From a virus (Duplodnaviria > Caudoviricetes), in IMG/VR virus record IMGVR_UViG_3300037851_000542, positions 32,001-96,000 of that record: a stretch of DNA of 64,000 bases; one strand, 5' to 3'. Positions 775-58,149 of the stretch are shown here, in pieces. Under the pieces are notes generated by a model. It saw nothing but the letters and a program-made list of their open reading frames with translations, was not told the origin of the DNA and did not search any database. The translations under genes and the position numbers were made by a program. Position 1 is the first letter of the stretch. Each line of letters begins with the position of its first letter.

Positions 775-801
775 TAAAGTTTATTTTAATGTGCGCCGAT
801 A
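775..801 (+). promoter_or_regulatory. sigma28-like promoter
   Basis: cTAAAgt, 16 nt, GCCGATA; upstream of ORF 845. Confidence 0.8.
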
Positions 802-844
802 GTAATATTATAGGGAAAAAGATTAACTGTTAAAAAGGACTACA

Positions 845-1027
845 ATGAGTCAAAATTTAAATAAAGAAAGCGAGCAGGCGAAAAAAGAACAAATTATTGA
901 CGATATTAATAATAGTCTGTTAGAAATTAAACAAGTAACAGGAGCAGGAATATTAAACCTTTCCCAGTTAGGATATCTTCAAGGTATTCTCAAAAGCCTT
1001 ATAACCCCTGTCGTAATTGAGGAATAA
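845..1027 (+). CDS. hypothetical protein
   Basis: ORF with AAGGA SD; overlaps next ORF. Confidence 0.6.
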   Translation: MSQNLNKESEQAKKEQIIDDINNSLLEIKQVTGAGILNLSQLGYLQGILKSLITPVVIEE

Positions 1028-1415
1028 GATGAATCAAGACTTAAACAGAGAAGAGTATTTAAAAAAGATTTCAGAGTTAGTTTTAGGAGAGCTAGTTGTA
1101 GTTAGCACTTGGGACTACTCGACTCAGCATTTTGAGGTTAGAAAAGTAGAAAAATTAACCAATAAACTAATAGTTTTAGATAATAATTTGAGATTCAACA
1201 AAGAGAATGGTAGAGTTTGGGGAGGTAACCACGGAAGAACTCCTTACTTATTGATCCTAACACCAGAGGTGGGTAATGCAGTAAGGAAATACAAGTTAAT
1301 TAGATCTGTAAAAACTAACTTGGACAAAGTAAAAAGTTTAAAACTAGATGAGCTAAGCACTGATACCCTGAGTATTTTAAAAGAAGTGCTAGAAAAGACT
1401 CTTGAGAAAAAATAA
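1017..1415 (+). CDS. hypothetical protein
   Basis: 132-aa ORF in operon-like run. Confidence 0.6.
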   Translation: MRNKMNQDLNREEYLKKISELVLGELVVVSTWDYSTQHFEVRKVEKLTNKLIVLDNNLRFNKENGRVWGGNHGRTPYLLILTPEVGNAVRKYKLIRSVKTNLDKVKSLKLDELSTDTLSILKEVLEKTLEKK

Positions 1416-1437
1416 CAATTAGTTTAAAACTTTATAT

Positions 1438-1806: not shown

Positions 1807-1826
1807 TTTTTGAAAATTATTAATTA

Positions 1827-2697: not shown

Positions 2698-2724
2698 TTA
2701 AGTTTCTAAAGAGAAGTGCCGATA
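2698..2724 (+). promoter_or_regulatory. sigma28-like promoter (TTAA -35 variant)
   Basis: cTTAAgt, 16 nt, GCCGATA. Confidence 0.7.
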
Positions 2725-2754: not shown

Positions 2755-3087
2755 TTGGCACATATGGATTGGGATCAAATATTCTCAGAAGCTTGTGAAA
2801 CAGGAGATTTAGCCACAGTTAAAAAACTTTCAAAGGTGGTTACAAAAAGAGCACTAAAAGAGGGTTTGTGGATAAGCGCCCAAAATTACGAAGGCAACGC
2901 ACCGGAAGATCAAGAAGATCAGTTCGAAATAATTAAGTATTTAGTAGAAAAGAAAAAAATAAATGTTAAAGAGTTTGATGATGGTTTAATTAGCGGGATT
3001 GACAGTATAAAAATAGGTAGATATTTAATTGAAAAAGGTTTAAAATGTAGTTCTGCGTATCTTCTTGGGTTTTTTCACTTTATTTAA
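2755..3087 (+). CDS. Ankyrin-repeat-like protein
   Basis: FSEACETGDLATVKKL; FEIIKYLVEKKKINV; ends ...FHFI. Confidence 0.6.
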   Translation: MAHMDWDQIFSEACETGDLATVKKLSKVVTKRALKEGLWISAQNYEGNAPEDQEDQFEIIKYLVEKKKINVKEFDDGLISGIDSIKIGRYLIEKGLKCSSAYLLGFFHFI

Positions 3088-3255: not shown

Positions 3256-3702
3256 ATGAGTAGTTCTAATACTATATTTCTAGATCCTTTAGAACCTCTT
3301 GTATTCTCCAGTAACAATTATATTGTACCTAATAATGCCGAGTTTAAATTTAGAGAATACGATAAATCTGTAAAAATACTAGGAACTATAACTAAAACAT
3401 TAGTAGACTTCCGTGAAGATCGTATGAGTTTAAAAATACCTAGAGGCTGGACAACAAGAGCATCTGCAAAAGACATACATGATGCTATGGTAAAAAGTCT
3501 TATAAGTTTCGGAACATCTACCTTAACAATAAGAGCTGGTAATAAAATAGTATTCGAATGTAGTATGAAAAAACCTGGTCTTATCCATAGTTATAAGAAA
3601 CTCAAACCAACAGACAAGCAATTTCTTAAACACTTGGCAGAAGAGATAAGGAAAACTATGTTGGCTGAAGCTATAGTTACTAAAAAACTACATTTTATCT
3701 AA
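3256..3702 (+). CDS. hypothetical protein
   Basis: ATG at 3256 overlaps previous stop; ends ...LHFI. Confidence 0.55.
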   Translation: MSSSNTIFLDPLEPLVFSSNNYIVPNNAEFKFREYDKSVKILGTITKTLVDFREDRMSLKIPRGWTTRASAKDIHDAMVKSLISFGTSTLTIRAGNKIVFECSMKKPGLIHSYKKLKPTDKQFLKHLAEEIRKTMLAEAIVTKKLHFI

Positions 3703-3726
3703 AGTTATTTTAAATAGCTGTCGATA
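3700..3726 (+). promoter_or_regulatory. sigma28-like promoter
   Basis: cTAAAgt, 16 nt, GTCGATA; -35 overlaps the upstream TAA stop. Confidence 0.75.
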
Positions 3727-3769: not shown

Positions 3770-3880
3770 ATGGTTAATTTTATAAAAGGCGTGACATTTA
3801 TTTGGATTTTTGCAGTATCTGTATACCTACTGATAACTATCTTAAATCACCTTCCATTATTTTGCTTTAAGGTAGGATAG
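3770..3880 (+). CDS. 36-aa hydrophobic peptide not in ORF track (MVNFIKGVTFIWIFAVSVYLLITILNHLPLFCFKVG)
   Basis: AAAGGA SD; follows the promoter at 3700; one TM-like stretch. Confidence 0.5.
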   Translation: MVNFIKGVTFIWIFAVSVYLLITILNHLPLFCFKVG

Positions 3881-5742: not shown

Positions 5743-6294
5743 ATGTTTGATGCCACAGCCTGTTTTGTAATAAACCCAGATAGAGAAAAGGCTCATATTG
5801 ATAGTTTGGTTAGAGATAATAAAAGAACAGCTCTAAAATTTTATATTAAAATAAGAGCTAGTTTCGCAGTTTCGTATTGCGATAAAAGAAAAGAGGTAAT
5901 CAGGTATGGTCTTTCTGAGCTGGAAAAAACCTATAAAGCAGGCAAGAAAGTTTTTTATTATAAATTTATAACAAAATTAATAGATCATTTGATTAGGAAA
6001 GGTCTGTATAAGCCTGATATTTTTTTGTTTGATTTACTAGGTGATTTTATCTATGAATTTAAGAATAAACATTTGATGTTAAAGTTACTTGATTGCCTTG
6101 TATACTTTACACCAGATATTTCTTACATTAAAAGTCTTATGAGGACTTTAAAACTCACTTACATACCATTGCACACTGCTTGTATCTTTTGTATAAAATT
6201 TTCTATAAAAGACATTTTAGATATGCACGAGTTGTATGGTTTAAGTCTGCATATCACTAAAGGAGATTTAAGCCGTAAAGTAATTTTAGTCTAA
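5743..6294 (+). CDS. hypothetical protein, ends VILV
   Basis: ATG at 5743 after preceding stop. Confidence 0.55.
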   Translation: MFDATACFVINPDREKAHIDSLVRDNKRTALKFYIKIRASFAVSYCDKRKEVIRYGLSELEKTYKAGKKVFYYKFITKLIDHLIRKGLYKPDIFLFDLLGDFIYEFKNKHLMLKLLDCLVYFTPDISYIKSLMRTLKLTYIPLHTACIFCIKFSIKDILDMHELYGLSLHITKGDLSRKVILV

Positions 6295-6318
6295 AGTTTT
6301 ATTATACCTCTGCCGATA
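6292..6318 (+). promoter_or_regulatory. sigma28-like promoter
   Basis: cTAAAgt, 16 nt, GCCGATA; overlaps upstream TAA. Confidence 0.8.
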
Positions 6319-6349: not shown

Positions 6350-6568
6350 ATGGATTTAATTGTAATAGAGTATACAACCCTTGCTTCTTACTTCTGTTCA
6401 GTGGTATTATTTGGACTAGGGTTTATTGGCTTAGGTATTTATAAGCTCTTAGAGTCTAATAGTATAGCTCCTATAGTGGTACCTGTTTATTATTGTGTAG
6501 TTGCTTCTTTTGTATTTATAGAAATGTTTAGTTTTTTATTATTATTGGCAGTAAAATGGCAACTTTAG
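6350..6568 (+). CDS. small two-TM membrane protein
   Basis: two hydrophobic stretches. Confidence 0.55.
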   Translation: MDLIVIEYTTLASYFCSVVLFGLGFIGLGIYKLLESNSIAPIVVPVYYCVVASFVFIEMFSFLLLLAVKWQL

Positions 6569-6754: not shown

Positions 6755-6780
6755 ACCTTAACTCTAAAGTTAAGGTATAG

Positions 6781-9992: not shown

Positions 9993-10019
9993 TCAAGTAT
10001 TTTACCATTAGTACCGATA
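9993..10019 (+). promoter_or_regulatory. sigma28-like promoter (TCAA/ACCGATA variant)
   Basis: cTCAAgt, 16 nt, ACCGATA. Confidence 0.65.
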
Positions 10020-10821
10020 TATTCTATGGAAATAGTAATTTTATAAAAGGGAAGATATGGAATACCAAATTGTAAATCAAGATAATAAAAGAAGTTATAT
10101 AATTGTAACTGTAGGTAATAGTCAAGTAAAAATTACCAAAGATATAGGCGACTGGTTTACAGTAGAAAAACTAAATCCAGAAGTAACTAGTTACAATGAT
10201 TATATTTTTCTGCGTAGTGTTCCAGCAACCAGTTTTAATGAAGCTATTGAAAAAGTAAAAGAACTTCAAGAAAAATTTAGTTTGTAAACTACTAAAGGAT
10301 TAATGGAACTATACAAAGACATTGACTTTGAAGAGCTTGAAAAAAAGATTAAAAGTATAGTAAAATTAAAAGATATACACATGTTTGATCTACTGGATCA
10401 TAAGGATCTAGCCAAAGAAAATGAAGACGGTATTAGAATAGCTGTTTCACGTCTCCTACAGAAAGGAGAAATCGTATTTAAGAATGAACTGCTGTCGTCA
10501 ATTAGTAAATTTTCTCATCTTATTTAAATTAAGGGATTAAAAATATGTTACAACAACCAAAACCTGTAGTACCTATAAATGAATATTTTGGTGGATCAGA
10601 TTATATGTACGTTATTTACGTCTCAGTCGGATTTGGTCTAGTTTTAGGCTTTCTTCCTTTAATTTGTGACGGCGCAAGAAAAGAAGAAGAAGAAAGAAAA
10701 CGAAAAGTATGTTTAGACCACGGGGGCATCTTGAGTATATAGCATTATCTGATGGTACCTTTTATTGTACAGACGTAGAGTCAGAGGTTATTATTAATAT
10801 AGAAAACTTAAAACAACTAAG

Positions 10822-12069: not shown

Positions 12070-12096
12070 TAAAGTTTTGTTATATTGTTGCCGATA
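12070..12096 (+). promoter_or_regulatory. sigma28-like promoter
   Basis: cTAAAgt, 16 nt, GCCGATA. Confidence 0.8.
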
Positions 12097-12134: not shown

Positions 12135-13247
12135 ATGTGTGACAATATAACAAAGTTTGAGATGTCTATCGCAGGGTGTAACAAGAATAACCAGTTATTA
12201 GCTAAATTACATGAAAAATACGGTACTACTAAGGCTTTACCTCCTGAGACTGCATTCGTAGTAGGTCATACTCTACTATACGGTCCTGCAGGCTGTGGCA
12301 AAACTTCCTCAGCTTTAAAATGTGTAGAATTAGCAGGAGCGTCTGAAGAAAATAAAACTTTTTTTAAACTGTCTGCAGACAGTATTAATACAACTATAGA
12401 ATTTGTCAGAATACTAGAAGCAATATTAAACTGGGAAGGGTATCTTTGCAACTATGGTAAAATAGACCATAAGCATTGCGGTAAAAGGTGTTGTATTAAG
12501 GATCCAGTTCACCCTAGAGGACCAATTAAGCCTATTTACTTATTTATTGATGAAATTCACAACCTCAAAAAAGAAGTCCAAGAAGGGCTATTACTAATAT
12601 TAGAAGATTTCAGGTATCAGTATCGTGACGGAAATATAAACTATGATGTTCGATTTCCAAAGTTTACATTGCTTGCAGCTACAACTGATCCTGGGTTGCT
12701 TTTAAAGCCACTTATTAGCAGGTTTAAAATCAAATTAAAGGTTGATAGAAAAACTGATCAAGATATGGAATCAGTAGTTACTAGATTAGCAACAGAAAGA
12801 GGGCTAATACTAGAGCAAAAATCAGTTGAAGTTTTAAGTAGGATTTCGCAGGGGATTCCAAGAGAAGCACGTAACCACGTAGAGGGTTTATATAATTGCT
12901 GGGCTTATTTATTACATAATAATTCATCCATAGAAGGGCTTAGGGAGGATATTATTACTGGTAATGTAGCTGCCTACTATGCTAAAATTAATAATTTTAT
13001 ACAAGACGGTACTTCCCAAGAGCAATTAAATGTATTACTATATTTGAGCGGTAAGAGTGATAACGGTAAGTATATTACTGCCGGGGTCAAAAAATTATGT
13101 AATTCTTTAAGCTTTGATGAAAATTATTATTTATCCTTTATAGAGCCTAGGTTAATATTGAACGGATTGATTGATACGGCGCAATCAAGAAAGATTACTA
13201 ATAAAGGGCTAGAGTACTTAAACAGTATAAATAACAACTTGGATTAA
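12135..13247 (+). CDS. ruvB: RuvB-like AAA+ Holliday junction branch-migration ATPase
   Basis: HTLLYGPAGCGKT, LFIDEIHNL, FTLLAATT, GIPR, IEPRLI. Confidence 0.75.
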   Translation: MCDNITKFEMSIAGCNKNNQLLAKLHEKYGTTKALPPETAFVVGHTLLYGPAGCGKTSSALKCVELAGASEENKTFFKLSADSINTTIEFVRILEAILNWEGYLCNYGKIDHKHCGKRCCIKDPVHPRGPIKPIYLFIDEIHNLKKEVQEGLLLILEDFRYQYRDGNINYDVRFPKFTLLAATTDPGLLLKPLISRFKIKLKVDRKTDQDMESVVTRLATERGLILEQKSVEVLSRISQGIPREARNHVEGLYNCWAYLLHNNSSIEGLREDIITGNVAAYYAKINNFIQDGTSQEQLNVLLYLSGKSDNGKYITAGVKKLCNSLSFDENYYLSFIEPRLILNGLIDTAQSRKITNKGLEYLNSINNNLD

Positions 13248-13248
13248 A

Positions 13249-13449
13249 ATGAGAGACCCTAAACGTATACCAAAATTACTAGATCTTATTAAAAAATTAT
13301 GGGAAAAAAATCCAGATTTAAGGTTACTTCAAATGTTGGGCAATCTATTTAATAGTGGTTTTGATCCTTATTACACGGAAGATGATATTTTATATAAAAA
13401 GTTAATTCAAATGTATGGCGATCCTGATTTAAAGGATAAAAACAACTAA
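13249..13449 (+). CDS. small conserved phage protein (MRDPKRI..PDLRLxQ type)
   Basis: characteristic N-terminus. Confidence 0.65.
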   Translation: MRDPKRIPKLLDLIKKLWEKNPDLRLLQMLGNLFNSGFDPYYTEDDILYKKLIQMYGDPDLKDKNN

Positions 13450-13473
13450 AGTTATTTTTAACTTATACCAATA
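13447..13473 (+). promoter_or_regulatory. sigma28-like promoter (ACCAATA variant)
   Basis: cTAAAgt, 16 nt, ACCAATA; overlaps upstream TAA. Confidence 0.55.
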
Positions 13474-13504: not shown

Positions 13505-13864
13505 ATGGGAAGAACAATTATTAAACTGGCAGATAGATACTTAGAGTGGTCTTCTATAGTTGACGCTCCTGCCACTTATGGTATGACTCTTGAGGAATTT
13601 AAAAATTACTACGAACAGTCCTACGGTACCAGTTCTATGGCTGAATTAGAGGAAAGACTTAAAAGGGTAGAAAAAACAGGCACAAGCTCTATGTCAGAGG
13701 AAACTGTAGACGAGTTGATATCTTTTAATAGAGCCGGATTTGAGGAAAGTTGTTTAAGCAAGGAAGAACTTATTGATCATTATGTAATAATTCCGGAACA
13801 GTTTTCAGTTAAGTTGGGTAAGAAGTTATCCTTAAGTAAAGATTTAGAAAACCTAAAAAAGTGA
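13505..13864 (+). CDS. hypothetical phage protein
   Basis: 119-aa ORF after promoter, SD present. Confidence 0.6.
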   Translation: MGRTIIKLADRYLEWSSIVDAPATYGMTLEEFKNYYEQSYGTSSMAELEERLKRVEKTGTSSMSEETVDELISFNRAGFEESCLSKEELIDHYVIIPEQFSVKLGKKLSLSKDLENLKK

Positions 13865-14168: not shown

Positions 14169-14195
14169 TAAAGTTTTTTATAATCTGCGCCGATA
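14169..14195 (+). promoter_or_regulatory. sigma28-like promoter
   Basis: tTAAAgt, 16 nt, GCCGATA. Confidence 0.8.
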
Positions 14196-14223: not shown

Positions 14224-14487
14224 ATGGAAAATACGGCTACAATAAACATCTCATTACCAGACCAGCTATCAGACTATGTTAAATCTAGAATAGATATAGA
14301 AGGCTATCAAACTGTAAGTGAGTATTTTAGACATTTAGTTAGAGAAGATCAGAAAAGTAAAACTGTGTCTACAATTAACAATCTTATTGAGGAAGCTTTA
14401 AATTCTCCAAGTACTCCTTTAACTGATGAGGACTGGTCCTTACTTAGAAATAAACTAGAGCAACATAGAGCTAAAAAAATAGATTAA
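14224..14487 (+). CDS. ParD-family ribbon-helix-helix antitoxin (orphan)
   Basis: TINISLPDQLSDYVKSRI..GYQTVSEYFRHLVREDQ..LIEEALNS..PLTDEDW. Confidence 0.75.
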   Translation: MENTATINISLPDQLSDYVKSRIDIEGYQTVSEYFRHLVREDQKSKTVSTINNLIEEALNSPSTPLTDEDWSLLRNKLEQHRAKKID

Positions 14488-19031: not shown

Positions 19032-19058
19032 TAAAGTTTTGTAGCATATTGACCGATA
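19032..19058 (+). promoter_or_regulatory. sigma28-like promoter
   Basis: cTAAAgt, 16 nt, ACCGATA. Confidence 0.75.
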
Positions 19059-43407: not shown

Positions 43408-43482
43408 AGTGGTTTTGGTGAGATTAAATACTATAGAAACGGTATCTATTCACACTTTTAACCACTTTTAGAGGTCTTTATA

Positions 43483-45519
43483 ATGATTCAATTAAACCCT
43501 GTTTTAACCTCCCAGAATGGAAAGCTTTTAGTTGGGGATACCAATAGTACTGGAAAATTTACAAATTTAAGTTATTCAGAATCAGGTAGTAATTCTAACT
43601 TAATATCTTCTGGAACTTTTTTATTAGGTACCACAGGATCTAATGAGTTCAGAATACAAACTAATGGATCTTTAAAATGGTCTGTTGGGTCAAATGGTGC
43701 GCTTAGTGCTGCGGTCGCTGCCAATATAACGACTGGAGGTAGCGTTCAAAGTCCTACTTTAGAAAACATTGGATTCACAGACTTAAACTTAAACTCTAAT
43801 AATGCTGGTATAAAATTCTATACGTCCAACACTAGCCGTTGGGAAATGAGTAGCGCTGGTAATTTACTCCCTGCTACTTCTGGGACTTTAAATATTGGAT
43901 CTTCGTCTAATCCTATTCAAGTTATTACGGGTAACAATTTAAGTTCTTCTCCAGCACAGCAATTAAATCTTCAAATTGGTGGATCTACAAGGTGGATAGT
44001 AGAACCTAATAGCGGAAATCTTCAGCCCAATGGTGCTAATACTTACGGTATTGGAGGAGGATCAAGACCTTGTAATCAGGTGTGGACAAGAGTACTAACC
44101 TCTGATGCTGGGCAGAATCTAGTTTTAGCTGAAAACGGTGCTGCTAGGTGGACACTAGAGGCAGGTGGAAACAACTTAACTGCTGTCGGAGGGGCTGTAA
44201 TTAAATCTAGCAATAGTAATTTATCTTTACAAGGAAACTACTCATTTGGTTCTACAGGGGCTGCTATAGAACTTTTAAATAATGGACCTTTAAATTTAGT
44301 AGCTCAAGATGTAATCAGCATTTATAATGCGGGCGGGCTTAGATGGACTTTTAATACCTCTGGTGATATTGTACCTGCTAGTGGTTCTCAAAGTATTGGT
44401 ACAAATTCTTCTGCAATACTTTCAACTTATACTAGAAATGTATCCTCCGACGGCACTAATAATTTAAATTTACAAGTAGGAGGGAGCACAAAAGTATACA
44501 TAACTAATGCTGGAGATCTCATTGCAGGTGGAATTAGCACTACTTATTTAAATATAGATAACACTTTAACCTTAAACGATAATAATTTAACCTCAACTGG
44601 AGATTTAATTTTTAATAATGGGCAGTGGTTAAGATTATACGCTAGCGGTACAGAACGCTGGAGAATGTTTGGTAATGGAGAACTTTTAGCAGTACAAGAA
44701 TCTGTGAATCATTTTTTTGGTACTTTTAGCAATACGTCCTTATTCTTTAGAACAAACAATCAAAACAGGCTTTATTTAGAAGCAAACGCTAGTAACTTAG
44801 TAGGGGTAGGTTCTGTAGGTTTAGCTAGTAATGGTGGGGTAGTTACACTAGGATCAACAAATGATGGTAATCAGGATCCAAATAGCGCTACTATTATTAT
44901 AACTGGATTTGGAGGACCTTCTCCTAAAACTTTAGCTAGATTTACAAAAAATTCAATCAATCTTCAATGTCCTGATCGGGCTGGATTTAGCGGAGATCGC
45001 TTTTGGCTTAAAATTTATCACGGTGCTCAAGAGATGTGGGCATTTTATAACGCTATTGATGATTCATTAGCTGATGGAATGTTTGCCCCTCCGGTAACAA
45101 ACGCTTTTAATATTGGTCACCCTTCTCACAGAGTTAGAGATATACATACACAAGCAATAACAATATACTCTGACGAAAGAGGTAAAAATACAATACAACC
45201 TTCTACATTAGGGTTAGACTTTATTAATTCATTAAATCCAGTATCATATAAAATGAATGTTGGTAGGAATCAAACACTTGAAGAAGAAGATGGTACTCCT
45301 ATAATAGTGCCAATATCTGGAGTAAGAACACACTGGGGATTACTAGCCCAAGAAGTTAAAGCTGTAATTCCAAGTGGTGTAGATTTTGCGGGATGGGTAC
45401 TAGCAGATCTTGAAGACCCGGATAGTCAACAGTCTTTACGGTATTATCAATTTATTTGTCCTTTAATTAAAGCAATTCAGGAGCTGACCGCAAGAGTAGA
45501 GTCTTTAGAAAATCCTTAA
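43483..45519 (+). CDS. tail fibre with C-terminal peptidase S74 chaperone
   Basis: YSDERGKNTI..LGLDFINSLNPVSY..HWGLLAQEV..PLIKAIQEL. Confidence 0.85.
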   Translation: MIQLNPVLTSQNGKLLVGDTNSTGKFTNLSYSESGSNSNLISSGTFLLGTTGSNEFRIQTNGSLKWSVGSNGALSAAVAANITTGGSVQSPTLENIGFTDLNLNSNNAGIKFYTSNTSRWEMSSAGNLLPATSGTLNIGSSSNPIQVITGNNLSSSPAQQLNLQIGGSTRWIVEPNSGNLQPNGANTYGIGGGSRPCNQVWTRVLTSDAGQNLVLAENGAARWTLEAGGNNLTAVGGAVIKSSNSNLSLQGNYSFGSTGAAIELLNNGPLNLVAQDVISIYNAGGLRWTFNTSGDIVPASGSQSIGTNSSAILSTYTRNVSSDGTNNLNLQVGGSTKVYITNAGDLIAGGISTTYLNIDNTLTLNDNNLTSTGDLIFNNGQWLRLYASGTERWRMFGNGELLAVQESVNHFFGTFSNTSLFFRTNNQNRLYLEANASNLVGVGSVGLASNGGVVTLGSTNDGNQDPNSATIIITGFGGPSPKTLARFTKNSINLQCPDRAGFSGDRFWLKIYHGAQEMWAFYNAIDDSLADGMFAPPVTNAFNIGHPSHRVRDIHTQAITIYSDERGKNTIQPSTLGLDFINSLNPVSYKMNVGRNQTLEEEDGTPIIVPISGVRTHWGLLAQEVKAVIPSGVDFAGWVLADLEDPDSQQSLRYYQFICPLIKAIQELTARVESLENP

Positions 45520-45903: not shown

Positions 45904-46287
45904 ATGCTATGTCAACATTTCTAGAGCAATACCACATATAACTTTATCCTCTGCATCAAATTTGGTAATTAGTTGCTTATTGTTAGTTAGATAAGCAGAT
46001 ATAAAGTTTATTAAATGATCTAATACTATCCTAGCTAATGCTTTTGTACTGGCTTTTAAATTAGCATTATTACCAAACTCAGAAATCCACAGCAAGACCA
46101 TATCTCGACGGGTTTCGAGTTCCTTTAACTTATCAAATCTAGCGGTCGTTAGAATCAATTCCATACTTATAATATAGTATGCCATTTGATTAAATTAATC
46201 TATATAAATTACATAGTTGCATTAAAAATAAAAATATGTTAATATTATTAAATAGTTATCTATTATAAAAAATAACGAGGAACATGA

Positions 46288-47259
46288 GTGACAAAAGAAT
46301 ACAAATTTAAAAACTACTATGAATCTGAACCTCAAGTAGATAAAATACTTTATGACGAATCTAAAGAAAAAGTATTAAAAGCTTTTGCTAACATTAGTCA
46401 AACCTATGCAAGAAAACACGTTAGACCAGGTATTGACTATGAAGATCTGTATAATGAAGCCCAACTTGGAGTTTTAGAAGCTATTGAGTACTTTTCTGAT
46501 CCAAGTAAGGTAGAAAAAAAATATCCATTCAAGCAATATGTTCTTTACAAAATTAGGGAAAGAACTTATCAGTACTGCTTGCGTAATGCTATAAAAATAA
46601 AAACTCCTTATTATATTCAGCGCGGTTCAAAACATGTAGCTCAGATTACAACTTTATTAAAAAATGCTCCGGTTGCTTTTCAAATTCTTGGTAAAGAGGA
46701 CGTTAGTGATAGTGATATTAGAGAGTTTTTATATAATGAGAATGAAAGGTTACCTTTAAAATCTGATGAGTTTATTCGTGCTCAAATAAATAAAAATCTA
46801 ACTACAGATCAGTTTAATCAGGTTTATGATAACGTAGTAAATCATAAAAGAGGAAGTGCTCATTCTTTTGTAAAGAAAAACTTAACTGATGTTGGTAAAA
46901 TATTACATATAAAAGAAAAGATCTGGTATAATGCTACAAGTAACAATATGCCATTTAGTAGAGTAATATCTTTAATATTAGAGGCTCGTAGTGCCAGATC
47001 CAGCCACGATTCTGTTTTTTGTGGGACTATAAATGGGCTCTCAGAAAAAAATATTATTTTTGCAGAAATGGTAAAACGGGGCAGGGAAGTTTGTGGGACT
47101 AAAAATTTTGATATATTTTTATCAAATAAATACTTAAATAAAACCTATAAAGAAATCTCAGTACTTTATAACGTCCCTAAGAATGATATAACTGAAATTA
47201 TAAAAAGGTGTATAAAAAGTCTAAAAGAAGACGACATAATAAACGAATTTAACGATTAA
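46288..47259 (+). CDS. sigma70-family RNA polymerase sigma factor
   Basis: region 2: YEDLYNEAQLGVLEAIEYF..FKQYVLYKIR; region 4: KTYKEISVLYNVPKNDITEIIKRCIKSLK. Confidence 0.8.
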   Translation: MTKEYKFKNYYESEPQVDKILYDESKEKVLKAFANISQTYARKHVRPGIDYEDLYNEAQLGVLEAIEYFSDPSKVEKKYPFKQYVLYKIRERTYQYCLRNAIKIKTPYYIQRGSKHVAQITTLLKNAPVAFQILGKEDVSDSDIREFLYNENERLPLKSDEFIRAQINKNLTTDQFNQVYDNVVNHKRGSAHSFVKKNLTDVGKILHIKEKIWYNATSNNMPFSRVISLILEARSARSSHDSVFCGTINGLSEKNIIFAEMVKRGREVCGTKNFDIFLSNKYLNKTYKEISVLYNVPKNDITEIIKRCIKSLKEDDIINEFND

Positions 47260-47263: not shown

Positions 47264-48061
47264 ATGGCACTGGAAATAGGAGATAAAGCAGTACCCAAGT
47301 CTGATGTACAGGTTTTAAACGCTACATATAGAACAGGCGGGATAGAAGGTTTAGTACTAAATAGAAAACTAATAACTATTAACTCAGAAAATCAGGACAT
47401 TTTTACCTATCAAGTAAGTTTTCCTTCACCTATTACTGGGACTACGACTAGTGGTACTGAAGCAGATGTTCAAAGTTTGTTTTGGTTTTCCTCTGAGGAG
47501 CTTGGACAAGAGGGTATTCTAATAGAAGAATACGATTATAATAAAATTAACTCTGATCTAAACAATGCTAGATCTACATCGGCGCAAGCACTAAGTATTG
47601 TAGGATCTATAGAAAACGAGGTAGTACCTACTGATTTATTTTCAGAGTCTATTTATACAATTGCAAAGTCTGTACAAGAAAATAATAACACATTGGCTGA
47701 AGCGTCTTTTAACAGTAATGATTCTAAAGTAAGAGAACAAGAAGCAAGTAAAGTAGGATTTGACTCCCTTGGATTAGAGGTTAATCAGGCAGTTTTACAG
47801 GAAATAGCTGAAAATATGTCTAATTTTAATAGCTTACAGTCACAAACACAAGCAGAGATTGACAGGCAAGGTCAACAGACAGCAGAACAAGTCAAACTTT
47901 ACAATACCTCAAAGGAAGAGGACCACTTGGCGTATACAGAAGCTTTAGTAGAAACTGGACAGAGGCTCCCTCAGGGTTCTATTTATAAATTAAGAACAAC
48001 TGACTGGGAGACTGCTCTAACCCCACCTCTGACTGTAAATATTACGCCAGAAGTGGAGTAG
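47264..48061 (+). CDS. hypothetical protein
   Basis: 265-aa ORF coupled to the sigma gene. Confidence 0.6.
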   Translation: MALEIGDKAVPKSDVQVLNATYRTGGIEGLVLNRKLITINSENQDIFTYQVSFPSPITGTTTSGTEADVQSLFWFSSEELGQEGILIEEYDYNKINSDLNNARSTSAQALSIVGSIENEVVPTDLFSESIYTIAKSVQENNNTLAEASFNSNDSKVREQEASKVGFDSLGLEVNQAVLQEIAENMSNFNSLQSQTQAEIDRQGQQTAEQVKLYNTSKEEDHLAYTEALVETGQRLPQGSIYKLRTTDWETALTPPLTVNITPEVE

Positions 48062-48077: not shown

Positions 48078-48974
48078 TTACCAAGTGGATAAAGAAAATC
48101 TCTTCCAGCTGTTAGTATTTACTGCATAGTAACCATAATCATCAGCAAATATAAAAGTACCTTTAACCCCTGATGTAGTTGTTGTAGGAGGCTCAGAAGC
48201 TGAGCTTAAAAGCAATAAGTTTCCAGAAACTGTAAGGTTATTTAAAACACTAAGGTTTCCTGTTACTTCTAAATTTCCTCCAACATAACCTGCAGTATTA
48301 CCCTGTACTCCTCCTGGAACATTGTCCACGTAAAGACCTACTAACGAAATATCGTTGTTTAATGAGTCCGACAGCCCACTTCTGCTTATATTAAACGATC
48401 CAATAAAAGGAGCAGACCCCGATGAAAAGTTACTAGCAGGTATGCTAAAGTTAACCAATTTTAGCTGCTCTAAAGAGTTTGTACTTATTGTGAGGGTTTG
48501 AGGTGTGCTATAAGAAAAAGCACCGGGCGTTAAATCTGCATTGGTATTTTGGTTAAATAAGTTATAACTCATGTTAAAATCGGCATCACCTGTGCCACTA
48601 CCTCTGACAGTGCAAAGCATTCTAACTACTACTGGAGACACAGGTTGTGCCCCTAAAGTTAGCTGAAATCCTGCTGTAGACACAATACCATCTGGAAATG
48701 AAACTACTGCTAAATCTCCAACATTGTCAGAAGTTAGCCCTGACACATTTATTATATCATATATTTCTACAACACCACTTGCCGCCGAAAATTGTAAACC
48801 CGAAAATACATTATCTACTGTTTTAAAAACATCCTGTGAATTGTCGCCGGATATTACTACAAACGTGGAGTCATCTATTGTTATCATAGATCCGTCTAAT
48901 TTAGATTGCACGAACCCACCAGAAGCACTATAAAACCGATCTACTGAAACTTCACCGTCATCAAATGTTATCAT
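48078..48974 (-). CDS. probable virion structural (tail-associated) protein
   Basis: SG-rich; C-terminal PPTTTTSGVKG..DDYGYYAV.TNSWKR.SLSTW motif seen in phage fibre-related proteins. Confidence 0.55.
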   Translation of the reverse strand: MITFDDGEVSVDRFYSASGGFVQSKLDGSMITIDDSTFVVISGDNSQDVFKTVDNVFSGLQFSAASGVVEIYDIINVSGLTSDNVGDLAVVSFPDGIVSTAGFQLTLGAQPVSPVVVRMLCTVRGSGTGDADFNMSYNLFNQNTNADLTPGAFSYSTPQTLTISTNSLEQLKLVNFSIPASNFSSGSAPFIGSFNISRSGLSDSLNNDISLVGLYVDNVPGGVQGNTAGYVGGNLEVTGNLSVLNNLTVSGNLLLLSSASEPPTTTTSGVKGTFIFADDYGYYAVNTNSWKRFSLSTW

Positions 48975-49047
48975 TTTTTAATTACTCCAAAGGTCTGTAT
49001 TTTATATAAGTGTGTTACTGTAGCACATTCTTATTTAAAAATTTACT

Positions 49048-49076
49048 TGACAATACCTTAACAATAGTATATATTT
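49048..49076 (+). promoter_or_regulatory. sigma70 promoter
   Basis: TTGACA-17-TATATT (coordinates approximate). Confidence 0.6.
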
Positions 49077-49997
49077 ATTATTTTAATTTAAAAATTACCA
49101 ACATAAATTACCAACATTTGAAAGAATGGTAGGCACTTATATACCACCTGAGCTATCTTTACTTCTAAGATCTGACCTAGAAGAAATAATAACTGAAAAG
49201 TTTGCGGAGCACTACTCAGTAAATATTAATAACTGGATTATACCGGATTTATATTATAATCAGTCTCTTAAAAAACTAATTTATAATAAAAAACCTGCTA
49301 ATGGTATGTACTGCTTATTAGGTAAAATAAACTACGGTAGTCCTGATAAAAGAAGTAAACATACTGTCTTTCAATTTAATCTTGCTAGCATAAATCTTGC
49401 TGAAACAGTTTGGGCAGATTCATTTTTACCCTATCCAAATATAACAGGTGAGGTCAAAGAAAACTTATACTTTCCTCTATTTAAAGTAGGACCATATTCA
49501 AAATATAAAAGGTACTTTGATATTTATCACTCTGAGTTAAATGCTTCTTTTACTCTAGATGCTTTAAAAGATAAAATCAATTATATGCAGTTTAGAGACC
49601 CAGATAAAGATGTAGTAAAAATAAGGATATATAAACTGAGACTAGCGCTCCAGAGGATGATAGATTTAGAAAAAGTTTAATTACTGTTGATTTTACCTAA
49701 AGCTGCCTGTATACTAATTAAACATATTTAACTTAAACTTATTAACTGCAGAACTATGGCTAGTAAATTAAAAATATTCACTGTAAAACAACTTGGTCAG
49801 AAGGATGACTATTCAGATCCGAAAAACCCTACAATCATCCCTGCTGAGACGGAAGAAGACCTGATGTTAAAAATTCAAGCAGTTATAGATGACGCTGGTA
49901 TTGCGCCTGGCGCTTTGACTAACTGGAGCATTGTGAAGTTAGAGCGTATTATAAAAGGCTCTGGGGATGCTAGTTATTGGGTAGTAGTTGAGGGCGA

Positions 49998-54240: not shown

Positions 54241-54709
54241 TATTGTTATTACTTACTTTCACTCCTACTGCCGATACGGAATGTAGAGAGAATTATAACA
54301 TAAAGGAGCATTTTAGAGGATCCCAATTATTTATAGCATCATCTGTTGATACTTTACCTTCTGCTACAGATATTACTTGTATATTGTTAGAAACTATCAG
54401 CCTTAAGTCTAAAAATCTCCCTACGGATTTTATTATAGCAATCTCTGATTTAAATAATATAGGTGGGGCTATTTTGAGAGTCTCTGTAAAAGATAATCTT
54501 TTTATATTAATGGATTTTGCTAAATCTGATAGTAATAATTATACAATTACAGCTATTACATATCCAGACCCTTTAAAGAGGATTCAAGAGGTATTAAGTA
54601 AAAAAAGATTACCTACTACTTCCGATTTAACTACTTATGAGCTTTTAAAGTATAAAGCTTTAAAGTCTTCAATTACAAGTACTGAGCTACTAGAGGTAAT
54701 AGGAAAACA

Positions 54710-55387
54710 ATGATAAAATATAATTCCGATAACGAAGTTTTAGAAGCTTTAAAAAAAGAATTTAGTAGAGACTCCGAAAAGGTTTTATCTATTGGGTATG
54801 GCAAAGGTAAGAAAGATTTAGTTTACTTGTCCGTTGAAAGTGTAAGAGCACGTTTAGATGACGTTCTTGGTTTAAACTGGAATTGGGAAACTATTGAAAC
54901 TGTTTATTCTCAGTTTATAAAAGCCCCATCTAAACAGAAGCTGGACGACGGTTCCTACGGTGTTCCTGCCGGAGCAGGTCCTGTCTCGATACCTACAGTA
55001 TCTGTTACAGGCAGACTCACCTTACACTTACCTTCAGGGATTGCTGTATTTAGAGACGGTAACGGTGGAAGCTCTTTAGACAAAGGTACTGGACCTGGTG
55101 ACCCTGAGAAAATTGCAGCTAGTGATGCTTTTAAGAGAGCTGCCTGGTTTTTTGGTATAGGGGCATACTTAAGAAACGGTACTGCTTCTATAGATAATAC
55201 TTCAGTTATGGACTCAAGCAGACAGGGTTTTATTCCTCAGGTGCCAAACCAGCAGCAGCAGAATTGGAACCGAAATACAACAGTAGGAGGAGTTGTTCCC
55301 CACAATAACACTTTTACTGGACCTACGAATCATCAACAAGAACCTATAATTCACCAGACAGGTGGGTTAAAACCGGGCAGACCATAA
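54710..55387 (+). CDS. Rad52/Sak-like single-strand annealing protein
   Basis: YLSVESVRARLDDVLG..W, KIAASDAFKRAAWFFGIGAYL. Confidence 0.8.
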   Translation: MIKYNSDNEVLEALKKEFSRDSEKVLSIGYGKGKKDLVYLSVESVRARLDDVLGLNWNWETIETVYSQFIKAPSKQKLDDGSYGVPAGAGPVSIPTVSVTGRLTLHLPSGIAVFRDGNGGSSLDKGTGPGDPEKIAASDAFKRAAWFFGIGAYLRNGTASIDNTSVMDSSRQGFIPQVPNQQQQNWNRNTTVGGVVPHNNTFTGPTNHQQEPIIHQTGGLKPGRP

Positions 55388-57228
55388 TGGAAATAAAACC
55401 TGTTTATATTAAAGATCTTTATAGTAAGATAAATATAATTGTTTTAAATAAAAGAGAAAGCGTAAATGAGTTAAAAAAGGTTAGTGTAAAGATAACAGAA
55501 GAGGACTACAAGCTGTGGGTATTAAATACCTGTGTTATAGGTATAAATAATATATCCTCTTATTTAAAGGACGGGACTGCTTCTTTAATATCCCAACTAC
55601 AGGAAGCTAATGAGGATATTTATAAAAGAGTAATAGCACTAAATGAATTTTTAGATCCTAAAAACTTGTTTATTAGCAACAAACGTGAACTTACGCACAA
55701 CAATACCAAACACCTTTTAACAAAGACTAAAAACTGGTCAAAAGAAGGTACATATAAAGAGATAACTACTGTAGATTTTCAGAACTTTTTAGATATATGC
55801 TCTGCATCTAGTTTGATGGAGTACACTCAAGTACCTGAAACCTTTAAAGATTTAAATTTAATTGTAAATATAAGATCTTTTTCTGAGAATGATCTCACTG
55901 CTCTTGTAAACTTAATGGATCTGGAAACAGACAGTCATTTAAAGTACTCAGTACTAGCAGAATGTATAGATAACTTCTCAGAAATTATTACGTTAATTAT
56001 AGACGAGGTAAATAAAAGTAGACTGGATATGGTTAAAACTGTATCCAGTCTTTACAGTTTATGCATCAAGCATAACTCTTTTCTTTATTTAAATTTAAAT
56101 GAAGCAAAGTATTTAAAGAAAGAACAGATAACTTCGTCATTTTCACAGACTAGTTCTGCTTTTAATAGCTTGTTTGAAAAATTAGAAGCTGACGAAGAAG
56201 AGGAAGAATTAAAAACTAAACCACTTAAAAGTGTACCACTAGCGCAGGTAACTGAACTAGAAGATAAACTAAAAAGTAGCATTTATGGGCAGGATGATGC
56301 AATTAAAGCTATTTACAATTCCGTAAAGCGTGCGCATATGGGTTTAAAACCTCAAAACAGACCTATAGCTGCGTTTTTATTCTATGGTCCTACTTCTACT
56401 GGTAAAACGGAGCTAGCTAAGGTTCTAGCCGAGTGTTTAAGGGGTTCTGCGTCAGAAGGTCTTGTAAAAATACCTTGTGGTACTGTCTTGAATGAATCTC
56501 ATACTATACAAACTTTAATTGGTGCGCCCCCTAGCTACGTAGGGCACGAATCTAAAAGTCTATTTGGAGCGCATTTTTCTAAGGATCCTAATTTAAAAAT
56601 TATATTATTTGATGAGATAGACAAAGCACATCCTAAAGTTTTTGATTTCTTGTTAGAAGCAATGGATGAAGGTAATATGATGGATAGTAAAGGTAACTGT
56701 TTAAACTTAAGAGATTCCATATTAATCTTTACTTGTAATACTGGACAAAAAGAGGCTATAAAAGCATCTAAAGCCGCAGGTTTTACATTAAATACTAGCA
56801 ATGAGAGCCATCAACATACAGTAGAAGAAATATATAAAACCACTATAGACAATAAATTAGTAGCTGAATTTAGAGCTAGACTTAACGGGCAATTCTTCTT
56901 CCGGAGGTTAAGTGAGAGTGAACTAATACTCACAGGTAAAAAATACCTTAATGACTTTTTTAAGGTCTGGGAAAAAGAAAATAAATCTATAGTGAATGTT
57001 TCTGAAGAAGTTTATAACTTTATGCTAAAAAAATGTATAAGCAGTCAGAAAGATTGTCACGCTAGACATTTAAATCACTTTATTGACGATCAGATTATAG
57101 ATAAGTTAGGAGATTTGCTAATAGATAAAAATATTACCCCATCTTCTATAAAGTCAATAGACATTACTATAGAAAATGATTTAATTGACTTTCATATAAT
57201 AGAAAAAAAGAAAAAGCTAAAAAAGTAG
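55387..57228 (+). CDS. ClpA/ClpB-type AAA+ ATPase (D2 module only, unrecognised N-terminus)
   Basis: IYGQDDAI, FLFYGPTSTGKTELAK, LIGAPPSYVGH, FDEIDKAHP. Confidence 0.85.
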   Translation: MEIKPVYIKDLYSKINIIVLNKRESVNELKKVSVKITEEDYKLWVLNTCVIGINNISSYLKDGTASLISQLQEANEDIYKRVIALNEFLDPKNLFISNKRELTHNNTKHLLTKTKNWSKEGTYKEITTVDFQNFLDICSASSLMEYTQVPETFKDLNLIVNIRSFSENDLTALVNLMDLETDSHLKYSVLAECIDNFSEIITLIIDEVNKSRLDMVKTVSSLYSLCIKHNSFLYLNLNEAKYLKKEQITSSFSQTSSAFNSLFEKLEADEEEEELKTKPLKSVPLAQVTELEDKLKSSIYGQDDAIKAIYNSVKRAHMGLKPQNRPIAAFLFYGPTSTGKTELAKVLAECLRGSASEGLVKIPCGTVLNESHTIQTLIGAPPSYVGHESKSLFGAHFSKDPNLKIILFDEIDKAHPKVFDFLLEAMDEGNMMDSKGNCLNLRDSILIFTCNTGQKEAIKASKAAGFTLNTSNESHQHTVEEIYKTTIDNKLVAEFRARLNGQFFFRRLSESELILTGKKYLNDFFKVWEKENKSIVNVSEEVYNFMLKKCISSQKDCHARHLNHFIDDQIIDKLGDLLIDKNITPSSIKSIDITIENDLIDFHIIEKKKKLKK

Positions 57229-58122
57229 TCAGTGTTTTCTAGTTCTAAGTCTTCTTTTCCTCTGTCCTAAAGCTATAACTGAAGTTGAGTTATCTGTTTT
57301 TCTAGTCTTTAAAACAGACTTAACTCCTTGAAAAAATCTGCAATAAGGTATATCTAAGTGCTCACATATGCTTCTGTAAGCATACAGATAACTATCGTTA
57401 TCACTTTCAAACCAACCTTTAGCCTCCTCGTGTCTTGTAATATCTTCGGATAAAAAATCATTAACTGCCGAAATTAAAACGTGCTGCATCAAGTCCTTTT
57501 CGTGGTAAGCAGGATCTGTTACATCAAGAAAGTCAGCATCTAATACTGGTCTATTTTGAGACATTACTTGTCTCCGAGTTTATTAAAGTAATCTTTAATT
57601 ACAACTCCGCTTGAAGTTTCTTTCTTTAAAACCAAGTCTCCATTATAGACGTAAAACTCCCATCCATCGTTAAACAACTCATCTAGCGTCTGCTCTTGTG
57701 CAGGCTTAAATATAAGACTACAAGATGATAAAAATAAAGTTATAAGTACGAATATTAGTTTATTGATCTGCATTGGTCCTCTTTCCAAATATAACTGTAG
57801 AACACTCTATAACTAGCTCGTCGTCTGTTTTGCTCCTGACTGTTCCTACGAAAATTCCAGGTTCTAGTGATCTTTGTTTAAGAACATTAACCTTATCTTG
57901 CTCATAAACATTTAACTTGGCTTTAATTTTAAAATTAAGTTCTACTTCTACTTTACCAGGTGTATCATTTATAAACTTGGTAATCATACCGTATATTGGA
58001 TACGACTTGCCTACCTCTACCTCGCCCTCTTGAACTTCTAGTCCAAACTTTTCAAAAAAGTTCTCTGCTTTGCTATCTTCCATTTATCTCCTGAAGTTAT
58101 TAAAAGTTTACTCACAATTGTA

Positions 58123-58149
58123 TATCGGCAAGGTAGGTTCAATACTTTA
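58123..58149 (-). promoter_or_regulatory. sigma28-like promoter
   Basis: minus strand cTAAAgt, 16 nt, GCCGATA; upstream of 57760..58083. Confidence 0.8.

Follow-up and report, generated by a model that had tools for sequence, protein, structure and literature searches.

Sequence evidence strongly supports a genome-wide regulon of promoters with a FliA/SigD-type consensus in an uncultured freshwater jumbo phage (~260 kb; 259,994 bp). The best explanation for the underlying motif, referred to herein as class i, is that it would act as the promoter of phage early and middle genes and be used by the host core polymerase together with a sigma-70-family factor. As to the identity of that factor, we tentatively favour the flagellar-type sigma-28 (FliA/SigD) of the host, with a probability of roughly 0.45.

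Across the genome, the class-i consensus is cTAAAGTT-N-gCCGATA, in which exactly 15 nt separate TAAAGT from CCGATA. The motif was found 53–55 times in the whole genome and 16–17 times in the window, i.e. the entire 64-kb stretch of DNA analysed here, versus 0–1 times in shuffled sequence. Genome-wide, TAAAGT-N15-CCGATA gave 29 exact and 24 one-mismatch matches; the other spacers (11–14 and 16–19 nt) gave no exact and 1–5 one-mismatch matches, and the spacing is fixed across the ~55 copies. A matrix scan returned 55 matches; 53 of these fall in intergenic DNA, which makes up 8% of the genome. The regulon is larger than first noted. The loose pattern TAAA-N18-20-CGATA was matched 15 times in the window (2.58 expected; maximum of 8 in 100 shuffles); matches at 22333 and 57393 differ from class i in spacing and were set aside as chance. 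Among 51 class-i sites, C directly precedes TAAAG (position -1) in 46 and G directly precedes CCGATA in 30, while A at -8 is not favoured (9/51). T occupies the two positions after TAAAG in 75–78% of sites, and an A/T-rich tract lies upstream of the boxes.

All 15 sites of the original prediction were recovered in the window at the same coordinates and on the same strands (Table 1). All but one match TAAAGT-N15-CCGATA with no more than one mismatch; the exception, 32863(-), has two (TAAAGA, TCGATA) but still scores 16 bits in the weight matrix. Each site faces a gene start 25–55 nt away genome-wide; the predicted orientation holds for every site in the window, where the start codon lies 29–55 nt downstream. 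For the ORF ending at 30277, the likely start is the in-frame ATG at 31119, 52 nt downstream of its promoter. Two sites were absent from the first list: a clear one at 15218(+), overlapping the 3' end of the preceding ORF, and a weak one at 34659(-). The genes behind class i comprise two divergent arms of small genes along with clamp-loader and RNA-ligase genes, and two replication-block genes outside the window are also preceded by class i. The earlier description of an accessory gene block therefore needs correcting, as the set also includes the clamp-loader, RNA-ligase and replication-block genes.

Table 1. Candidate promoters and sigma-related genes in the window.
Feature	Position	Strand	Details	Downstream gene
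Class i	775..801	+	exact, 34 bits	ORF 845..1027, 44 nt
Class i, -35 variant TTAAGT	2698..2724	+	one mismatch, 22 bits	ORF 2755..3087, 31 nt
Class i (GTCGATA)	3700..3726	+	30 bits	36-aa ORF 3770..3880, 44 nt
Class i	6292..6318	+	exact, 32 bits	ORF 6350..6568, 32 nt
Class i, -35 variant TCAAGT	9993..10019	+	one mismatch, 27 bits	ORF 10057..10287
Class i	12070..12096	+	exact, 30 bits	clamp-loader-like gene 12135..13247 (PHROG clamp loader)
Class i, -10 variant CCAATA	13447..13473	+	one mismatch, 24.5 bits	ORF 13505..13864
Class i	14169..14195	+	exact, 31 bits	ORF 14224..14487
Class i, weaker (TAAAGG...TCCGATA)	15218..15244	+	one mismatch, 16 bits	RNA ligase gene 15287..16336
Class i	19032..19058	+	exact, 22 bits	ORF 19109..19882
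Class i	19888..19914	+	exact, 34.5 bits	ORF 19964..20407
Class i	20778..20804	+	exact, 34 bits	ORF 20834..21169
Class i	25062..25088	+	exact, 32 bits	ORF 25131..25487
Class i (GTCGATA)	31171..31197	-	28 bits	ORF ending 30277
Class i, weaker (TAAAGA...GTCGATA)	32863..32889	-	two mismatches, 16 bits, intergenic	ORF 32577..32813
Class-i-like, doubtful (CTCAAG...GCCGTA)	34659..34685	-	14.5 bits, intergenic	ORF 33371..34612
Class i	58123..58149	-	exact, 23 bits	ORF 57760..58083, 40 nt
Class-ii boxes, two overlapping (ATACTAT)	36622..36637	+		tail-fibre-like gene 36682..38943 (Peptidase_S74)
Class-ii box (aATACTATAg)	43428..43434	+		tail-fibre-like gene 43483..45519
Class-ii box	49064..49070	-		tail-protein-like gene 48078..48974
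Best canonical sigma-A-type promoter in window, TTGACA-17-TATATT	49047..49075	+	11/12 matches, intergenic	ORF 49126..49680
Sigma-A-like hexamer pair TTGCAT-17-TAATAT	46218..46246	+	read from sequence	sigma gene
Sole sigma-70-family gene of the phage	46288..47259	+	323 aa; sigma2, sigma3, sigma4 domains	
Conserved acidic partner gene	47264..48061	+	265 aa, directly after sigma gene, no family	

The motif is kept in 13 related metagenomic phages (GC 29 to 42%). Its core is constant across this range of GC content, and the sigma proteins of these relatives are only 43–68% identical. In one relative, G001, the spacing is mostly that of E. coli (n11), and the -35 variants TTAAG and TCAAG occur both in the phage itself and in the relatives L140 and L184. 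In several relatives an ATG follows CGATA by exactly 8 nt (19 of 26 leaderless cases). Genes with an ATG at this position are leaderless, which puts +1 precisely at the ninth nucleotide past the final A of CGATA and fits C-13 G-12 A-11 T-10 A-9, as sigma-28 geometry predicts. Taken together, the paired -35 and -10 boxes, the strictness of their orientation and position, the persistence of the motif in the 13 relatives and the leaderless +1 argue for a promoter regulon.

The match to published sigma-28 promoters supports the proposed FliA/SigD-type assignment. The E. coli sigma-28 promoter is TAAAGTTT-n11-GCCGATAA (PMC2859248), that of P. aeruginosa combines a TCTAAAG -35 with a GCCGATAA -10 (PMC12784957), and sigma-28 needs a C-13 G-12 A T A core (bioRxiv 10.1101/2020.01.02.893370). 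Class i shares with the class-3 flagellar promoters of E. coli, Salmonella and P. aeruginosa the -35 (T)CTAAAGTTT, the -10 GCCGATA, this core, a separation of one to two helical turns between the boxes, and a +1 ~9 nt beyond the final A of CGATA. It differs in residing on a phage, in ~55 copies before non-flagellar genes, in having a spacer longer by one base in every copy within the phage genome, and in showing no preference for A at -8. In attack-phase Bdellovibrio bacteriovorus, TTAAG-N16-CCGATA accounts for 92 of the 140 mapped promoters (PMC3627812). The N16 from the -35 G to CCGATA is identical in the phage, and this FliA regulon is likewise a sigma-28-type global programme, with ~100 promoters, non-flagellar genes and a free-swimming state; however, it is cellular, its 5' ends are mapped, and its usual -35 is TTAAG rather than TAAAG. 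We found no evidence tying the phage to Bdellovibrio-like hosts.

The phage sigma protein matches Pfam r2 and r4 and is a PHROG sigma factor, and its AF2 model (pLDDT 83.8) aligns over ~300 residues to sigmaS, SigA, sigma28 and sigma32. Membership of the FliA/WhiG family was rejected (TIGR02479, 19 bits versus a cut-off of 189.6). Against the E. coli sigmas, the family profile scored 37 bits for RpoD, 24 for RpoS, 19 for RpoH and 10 for FliA, and of the 23 family members 8 match FliA_WhiG and 20 match RpoD_Cterm. The counterparts of the sigma-28 reader residues R58, Q63, T69, Q73 and R94 differ, and the phage protein lacks most of the residues that let sigma-28 recognise C-13/G-12 and the -35 element. 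All four E. coli sigmas share R586 and Q589 of the sigma4 recognition helix; across the family, ten different residues stand at the first of these positions and D or E at the second. Positions 585 and 588 are small and polar, as they are in FliA. The family is invariant in region 3.0 and at the beginning of region 2.4 (TPYYIQRG, LY.IR). The sigma gene has clamp-loader-like and helicase genes as neighbours, followed by the acidic protein gene, which by alignment is conserved after the sigma gene in 11 of 13 relatives and has no Pfam or PHROG match. In six relatives the sigma gene lies behind a class-i promoter, 20–50 nt after the AAA gene. Closer relatives carry TTGTTA-17-TATACT and TTGTAA-17-TATAAT where the phage has its sigma-A-like pair, and every relative inspected has such a pair ahead of the sigma gene or the operon containing it, although pairs of this quality are equally common in shuffled DNA.

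A second class, wTATACTATAg without a -35 box (class ii), precedes structural and lysis genes. Canonical TTGACA/TATAAT promoters are scarce (8 intergenic); those noted earlier at 6726, 36283 and 49047 are present, but as a class sigma-A hexamer pairs do not exceed their shuffled frequency (75 versus 77.8 expected). No phage RNA polymerase was found: DxDGD is absent from every ORF, Pfam gave no evidence of one, and no phage ORF matched a single-subunit polymerase. The phage also encodes large proteins without known function (2411, 1790 and 798 aa). T4 late transcription employs the gp55 sigma, the gp33 co-activator and TATAAATA promoters. Class ii is likewise a single 8–9 nt A/T-rich -10-type box before structural genes, without a -35, and the likeness extends to the location of the sigma gene beside clamp-loader-like and helicase genes and a conserved acidic protein. 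Unlike in T4, sigma4 is complete in the phage sigma, and the acidic partner has no detectable similarity to gp33. Class ii may be assigned to the phage sigma.

If host sigma-28 transcribes class i, early phage transcription would proceed without any phage protein and would depend on active sigma-28, and hence on a motile, flagellated cell. The phage sigma, here under its own sigma-A-like promoter, would then be a late factor acting, perhaps with the adjoining acidic protein, at the -35-less boxes of the structural and lysis genes. This reading draws on the match to experimentally defined sigma-28 promoters, on the invariant CGATA core with the leaderless +1 at its predicted place, and on the failure to find a phage RNA polymerase. 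It also draws on a phage sigma that is not FliA-like and whose family diverges at the usual -35-reading positions while the motif core stays constant, on the cascade in which early-type genes have class i and structural genes a separate class, and on the class-i promoter upstream of AAA-sigma in six relatives. Several observations weigh against it. Every member of the family, from several habitats and GC contents, would need motile hosts; the phage sigma retains sigma4, but class ii has no -35 box in the phage genome, where class i alone among the abundant classes has both boxes; a sigma-A-like hexamer pair always gives access to the sigma gene; and the A at -8, part of the octamer in both E. 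coli and P. aeruginosa, is not favoured. We know of no phage whose early genes are run by host sigma-28, and literature searches found no precedent.

It is quite possible, if somewhat less probable, that the phage sigma itself reads class i. Host sigma-A would begin by transcribing the sigma gene, from TTGCAT-17-TAATAT here and from the start of the helicase-AAA-sigma operon in relatives; the phage sigma would then seize core and fire the ~55 class-i promoters, the internal one at AAA-sigma providing positive feedback. The sigma-A-like pairs fit this order of events, but the frequency of such pairs in shuffled DNA lessens their weight. Phage-encoded sigmas usually own a rigid many-copy promoter class (SPO1 gp28, phiEco32 gp36), as class i is, and the retained sigma2 and sigma4 domains match only this abundant two-box class. 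The invariant region 3.0/2.4 start would be expected of a protein reading a conserved extended -10, the small polar residues at 585/588 make a sigma-28-like reading mode possible, and host motility would not be required. Its sigma-28 specificity would be either an ancient inheritance from a captured fliA or the product of convergence; a non-FliA protein, for which FliA is the least similar of four E. coli sigmas by profile and which has lost most sigma-28 base-reading residues, must then share the sigma-28 consensus at ~14 of 16 positions, and the canonical -35-reading positions vary in the family while the CTAAAG box is constant. Late genes would be left without a phage-specific factor, and host sigma-A, alone or aided by a phage cofactor, would read class ii. 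The TTGACA-17-TACTAT promoter of an IS element and the TTGACw-17-TATAGT promoters before tRNA clusters in G001 show that such -10 boxes can pair with a sigma-A-type -35, so class ii may be host sigma-A work. In SPO1 and phiEco32, early genes use the primary sigma and phage-specific promoters are unlike any host alternative-sigma consensus; here, it is the sigma-28 consensus that marks the abundant early-type class, and with only 8 intergenic canonical sigma-A promoters ~100 early-type small genes would wait for the phage sigma. The phage otherwise resembles SPO1 (gp28, gp33/34; sigma cascade summarised in PMC13401047) and phiEco32 (gp36) as a lytic phage with a sigma-70-family gene, no polymerase of its own and function-linked promoter classes.

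A division of labour, in which host sigma-28 drives a first round in motile cells, including the AAA-sigma operon of most relatives, and an overlapping phage sigma amplifies it independently of FlgM control, would reconcile the exact sigma-28 consensus with the class-i promoter at the sigma operon of six relatives and fits the retained sigma4 domain. It is improbable, as it finds no specific support, demands convergence of the phage sigma and host dependence together, and leaves the late class unassigned. Very improbable is a motif that serves as a phage regulator site, an RNA-level or packaging signal, or the promoter of an unrecognised phage RNA polymerase. The large proteins of no known function leave some room for it, but the box spacing is sigma-70-family-like with an A/T-rich tract upstream, the sites show strict orientation and a strict distance to gene starts, in relatives the ATG of leaderless genes comes at a fixed distance of 8 nt, and neither DxDGD nor a single-subunit polymerase match was found. 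Known virion polymerases, moreover, use short single-block or hairpin promoters.

Whichever sigma factor reads class i, either the start-up of this phage would be tied to swimming hosts, or an unrelated phage sigma would have acquired sigma-28 specificity.

All 15 sites of the original prediction, which had described promoters of the sigma-28 (FliA/SigD) type in the window, were present. In the whole genome, a spacer of exactly 15 nt between TAAAGT and CCGATA was found in 29 exact and 24 one-mismatch copies; each of the eight neighbouring spacings gave 0 exact and 1-5 one-mismatch matches. We refer to this motif, cTAAAGTT-N-gCCGATA, as class i. A position matrix derived from 51 sites and applied with a cut-off of 12 bits or more found 55 places in the genome, 53 of them in the intergenic DNA that makes up 8% of it, and the same matrix matched shuffled sequence 0-1 times. 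Nearly every class-i site in the genome is followed by a start codon 25-55 nt downstream; two seeming exceptions in the window are explained by a 36-aa ORF and by an internal ATG, respectively. The sites precede small genes of both genome arms, as well as two clamp-loader-like genes, an RNA ligase gene and an HNH-domain gene, and between 11 and 22 kb, 17 of 23 genes have a copy of their own. The logo of the 51 sites consists of an A/T-rich tract, C, TAAAG, TT, a T-rich spacer, G and CCGATA, and a purine is enriched 9 nt beyond CCGATA (41/51 sites), the position matching the expected start. Class i is thus real, a promoter-like signal with rigid geometry and very many copies, and almost certainly a sigma-70-family promoter class.

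The E. coli sigma-28 consensus is TAAAGTTT-n11-GCCGATAA (PMC2859248), where n11 between the octamers is equivalent to TAAAG-N14-GCCGATA, and sigma-28 of P. aeruginosa uses a -35 TCTAAAG and a -10 GCCGATAA with a spacer conserved in neither sequence nor length (PMC12784957). At the -35 box, for which the core TAAA extends to (C)TAAAGTTT, TAAAG is invariant in class i, the C before it is found at 46/51 sites, and the next two positions are T in 40/51 and 38/51. At the -10 box GCCGATAA, with its essential C-13 and G-12, we found G in 30/51, C in 45/51 and CGATA in 50-51/51, and CGATA is preserved throughout the relatives. The phage motif agrees at ~14 of 16 octamer positions as well as in the C that precedes TAAAG, and its sole departure from the published octamer is that A at -8 is not favoured (9/51 sites). 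The spacing between octamers is n12 in all copies, equal to the N16 of Bdellovibrio FliA promoters; in that bacterium TTAAG-N16-CCGATA occurs in 92 of 140 mapped attack-phase promoters and FliA is a global regulator (PMC3627812).

The record is a single virus sequence of 259,994 bp, of which the window covers bases 32001-96000; it is 95% complete by CheckV, with a GC content of ~32% and no tRNA genes in the genome, and a simple ORF map gave 379 genes at a coding density of 92%. Among the sequencing runs searched, only two freshwater DNA metagenomes, possibly its source, contained the stretch, and no RNA run did. Among GenBank phages there was no match to the sigma region by megablast or to the sigma by tblastn, and no cultured relative is known, the large terminase (TerL) sharing at most 27.5% identity with that of any isolate. 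Several other genes were noted. An IS605/TnpB-like gene inside the early arm encodes 541 aa with Cas12f1-like TNB, OrfB_IS605 and HTH domains, and has its own TTGACA-17-TACTAT promoter at 6726 and a raised local GC. The window also encodes a full-length protein like release factor 1 (RF1; 488 bits to PHROG 19918, Atlas TM 0.96 to RF1) and a divergent form of the ribosomal protein uS2, which is found in related loci L182 and L184 and in the P0033 contig as well; all frames are open under code 11. Neither TnpB, whose nearest cellular copies (Endozoicomonas) are only ~30% identical, nor the RF1-like and uS2-like proteins, whose Atlas matches are of mixed phyla, gave a clue to the host. Another protein combines a GDP-mannose 4,6-dehydratase domain with a C-terminal extension of ~300 aa that weakly matches glycosyl hydrolase 62, and related epimerase/dehydratase genes lie near the sigma gene in loci L142 and L175.

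Features of the phage genome (coordinates in kb refer to the whole record, those in bases to the window)
Feature	Coordinates	Strand	Basis
Small-gene arm	246 kb across record ends to 27 kb	minus	ORF map
Small-gene arm	28 to 57 kb	plus	ORF map
Structural block with TerL, major head protein and 2542-aa tape measure	91 to 198 kb	minus	ORF map
Replication and nucleotide-metabolism block	207 to 236 kb		ORF map
Class-ii sites	36622-36637, 39549, 40643-40656, 43428-43434	+	motif alignment
Class-ii site	49064-49070	-	motif alignment
IS605/TnpB-like gene	6350-8500		
RF1-like protein	10822-11907	+	
uS2-like protein	35368-36297	+	
Phage sigma	46288-47259	+	
Acidic partner	47264-48061	+	
GDP-mannose 4,6-dehydratase fusion	60060-62057	-	

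Upstream regions that lack class i are enriched in ATACTAT (23 regions versus 2.3 expected). This heptamer occurs 113 times in the genome, 41 of them intergenic, and an alignment of the 32 oriented intergenic copies gives wtATACTATa(g), lacking a -35 box. We refer to this box, found 25-60 nt upstream of tail-fibre, lysis, head and other structural operons, as class ii. Few good pairs of the type TTGACA-17-TATAAT occur, with eight intergenic examples, one of them in the IS605/TnpB element, and as a class they are not above the shuffled expectation. Since class i, class ii and a few canonical pairs were seen, the genome has three promoter types: judging by the genes that follow them, class i would be that of early/middle-type genes and class ii that of late-type genes, with few canonical sigma-A promoters. 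A full class-ii box also follows class i after 0-3 nt (CCGATA..TACTATAGG) at genome positions 13826(-), 16058(-) and 11957(-), outside the window; such pairs could be tandem promoters for early and late expression. The counterpart of class ii in the related contig G001 is tgTACTATAg, which before three tRNA clusters is paired with a TTGACw lying 17 nt from TATAGT. The DxDGD motif of two-barrel polymerases is absent from every ORF, and the large proteins, the largest being the tape measure, a Kelch-repeat protein and unknowns, have no polymerase Pfam matches; a PF00940 search for a single-subunit polymerase gave no match, as did its positive controls. As no polymerase was found in the phage, it very probably transcribes with the host core polymerase.

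We compared 13 relatives with GC contents of 29 to 42%, namely the whole 153-kb contig G001 and twelve loci around sigma homologues, among them L140, L013 and L141 on contigs of 243, 255 and 221 kb. All but L142 have cTAAAG-N16/17-CGATA before gene starts. G001 has 38 class-i sites with a -10 box of tg[ACT]CGATA, 27 at n11, the E. coli spacing, and 11 at n12; it mixes both spacings, whereas the present genome uses the longer one only. Of ~66 sites in the relatives, 26 are followed, 6-11 nt past CGATA, by the ATG of an ORF with 40 codons or more, 19 of them at exactly 8 nt, and several of these ATGs had been called as the start of the AAA gene. Transcripts from sigma-28 promoters are expected to begin ~7-9 nt past the -10 box. 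By the published numbering C-13 G-12 A-11 T-10 A-9 (bioRxiv 10.1101/2020.01.02.893370), the A of the leaderless ATG would be +1. This spacing lends independent, if indirect, in-silico support to the promoter function of class i and to the start site predicted earlier. Leaderless class-i genes, found in G001, L013, L140, L141, L177, L183 and L184, have no Shine-Dalgarno sequence; the present genome has none of them and instead has leaders of 20-45 nt with AGGAG-like sites, so leaderless and leadered usage differs inside one phage family. In G001, an identical class-i promoter, followed by identical first ~45 nt of a leaderless gene, recurs at 13746, 53225 and 153176 (+), with one copy 200 nt from the contig end; the three copies may form a repeated gene family or else belong to a terminal repeat. 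An IMG/VR scan with a 14-base core gave, among the matches listed, a single match per contig except in G001, and five large contigs from it had no regulon. Four relatives found through TerL (fragments, 4-36% complete) have few class-i sites and no sigma gene, and as fragments are uninformative on co-occurrence.

Only one sigma-70-family protein is encoded in the genome, a 323-aa product matched by Pfam r2 (20.9-24.6 bits), Pfam r4 (16.7 bits) and TIGR02937 (E-value 1.6e-9). Its 41 homologues, at 43-68% identity, come exclusively from metagenomic contigs, the longest of 255 kb. The AF2 model (pLDDT 83.8) could be aligned along its full length, ~300 columns, with sigmaS, SigA, sigma28 and sigma32 chains, and the fold search preferred no sigma class. 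Membership of FliA/WhiG was rejected, as TIGR02479 scored 19.1 bits (17.1 in a genome search) against a cut-off of 189.6. Among 23 family members, RpoD-type models matched most often (20/23) and FliA_WhiG least (8/23), and the family profile scored 37 bits against E. coli RpoD, 24 against RpoS, 19 against RpoH and 10 against FliA. The residues taken as readers of C-13/G-12 and the -35 box were R58, Q73 and R74 of E. coli and S224 and Q228 of P. aeruginosa. In sigma2, the counterparts of R58, Q73 and R74 are Y/E, Y and K, in a profile alignment that is uncertain at such distance and in which R84 and R95 are kept and R94 is replaced by Q. In sigma4, again by uncertain distant alignment, the counterparts of S224 and Q228 are N/S and D/E and the universal R586 is lost. 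Along the recognition helix, position 584 is an invariant K, 585 is N or S, 586 is any of ten different residues, 588 varies among T, S, I and V, and 589 is either D or E; all four E. coli sigmas share R586 and Q589, and the Q equivalent to Q589 is the key -35 reader of P. aeruginosa sigma-28 (PMC12784957). The sole FliA-like trait is the presence of small polar residues at these two positions, 585 and 588. By these tests, the phage sigma does not appear to be a hidden FliA. A 1-5 residue insertion in the sigma3-4 linker, considered as tracking the shorter spacer in G001 and L175, was discarded, since L182 has the insertion with both spacings and L183 has the short spacing without it.

In six related loci (L140, L175, L176, L177, L183 and L184), the gene order is a ~260-aa gene, a helicase, a RuvB-like AAA, the sigma and a ~270-aa partner, with a class-i promoter just before AAA, the sigma only 20-50 nt after it, and a sigma-A-like hexamer pair, read by eye, at the operon start. 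The whole sigma operon of G001 begins with a class-i promoter. In the present genome and its two closest relatives the sigma is relocated, and the hexamer pair in front of it reads TTGCAT-17-TAATAT in this genome, and TTGTTA-17-TATACT and TTGTAA-17-TATAAT in the two relatives; such hexamer pairs upstream of the sigma gene or operon are indistinguishable from chance. An acidic protein of no known family (265 aa here) follows the sigma in 11 of the 13 relatives. Conservation covers its ~80 N-terminal residues, the motif QEL.EN and an acidic PE.E tail at the C terminus, and the protein may be a candidate cofactor or anti-sigma; a search for a FlgM-like anti-sigma found none.

The two contenders for reading class i are host sigma-28 and the phage sigma. 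We favour host sigma-28, with a probability of roughly 0.45, as it accounts for the detailed consensus without further assumptions, for the constancy of the motif across phages whose sigmas vary at DNA-facing positions, for the non-FliA nature of the phage sigma, and for an orderly cascade of early and late classes. The weakness of this assignment is that it needs motile hosts family-wide; a literature search gave no precedent for phage early genes on host sigma-28, and we know of none for phage early transcription by it. Recognition by the phage sigma, which we rate only a little less probable than that by host sigma-28, would follow the usual habit of phage sigmas; sigma4 is present, the operon looks autoregulatory, and the gene is reachable from the sigma-A-like promoters, themselves indistinguishable from chance. 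An unrelated sigma must then, however, share the specificity of sigma-28, and the late genes are left to host sigma-A at -10-only promoters. The latter arrangement has a known parallel in Thermus phage P23-45, and the TTGACw-17-TATAGT promoters of G001 also speak for the phage sigma. Use of class i by both sigmas is improbable, and any other explanation of the motif is more improbable still.

If host sigma-28 is the reader, class-i promoters would be early, the sigma gene included, and the phage sigma would then act at the -35-less late class, so that the proposed cascade would resemble that of T4 in ending with a phage sigma at -35-less late promoters. Permissive cells could be those reached via flagellum-dependent adsorption, or the hosts could be Bdellovibrio-like with a FliA-run free-living stage. 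Taken whole, this uncultured jumbo-phage lineage may have keyed its start-up to the host motility sigma, with ~50 early promoters per genome read by sigma-28 holoenzyme, productive infection only in flagellated swimming cells, and its own divergent sigma and acidic partner forming a T4-like late system at -35-less TATACTATA; we propose this scenario tentatively, at somewhat short of even odds.

The usual view is that phages relying on the RNA polymerase of their host begin at primary-sigma promoters, and a 260-kb phage family whose commonest promoter class is the sigma-28 consensus breaks this pattern under either reading. The sigma-28 signal as such and phage promoter classes as such are already known; what we have not found described is a phage-wide sigma-28-consensus regulon, conserved in huge uncultured phages with a non-FliA sigma. 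With the class-i motif, transcription units and leaderless genes of this lineage can be annotated directly. Were the phage sigma the reader of class i, sigma-28 specificity would reside in a protein without the FliA signature, a natural experiment in DNA recognition by sigma factors. Were it host sigma-28, infection would be coupled to host motility and cell state; this would be a new form of host sensing, and would hint, from sequence alone, at how the hosts live.
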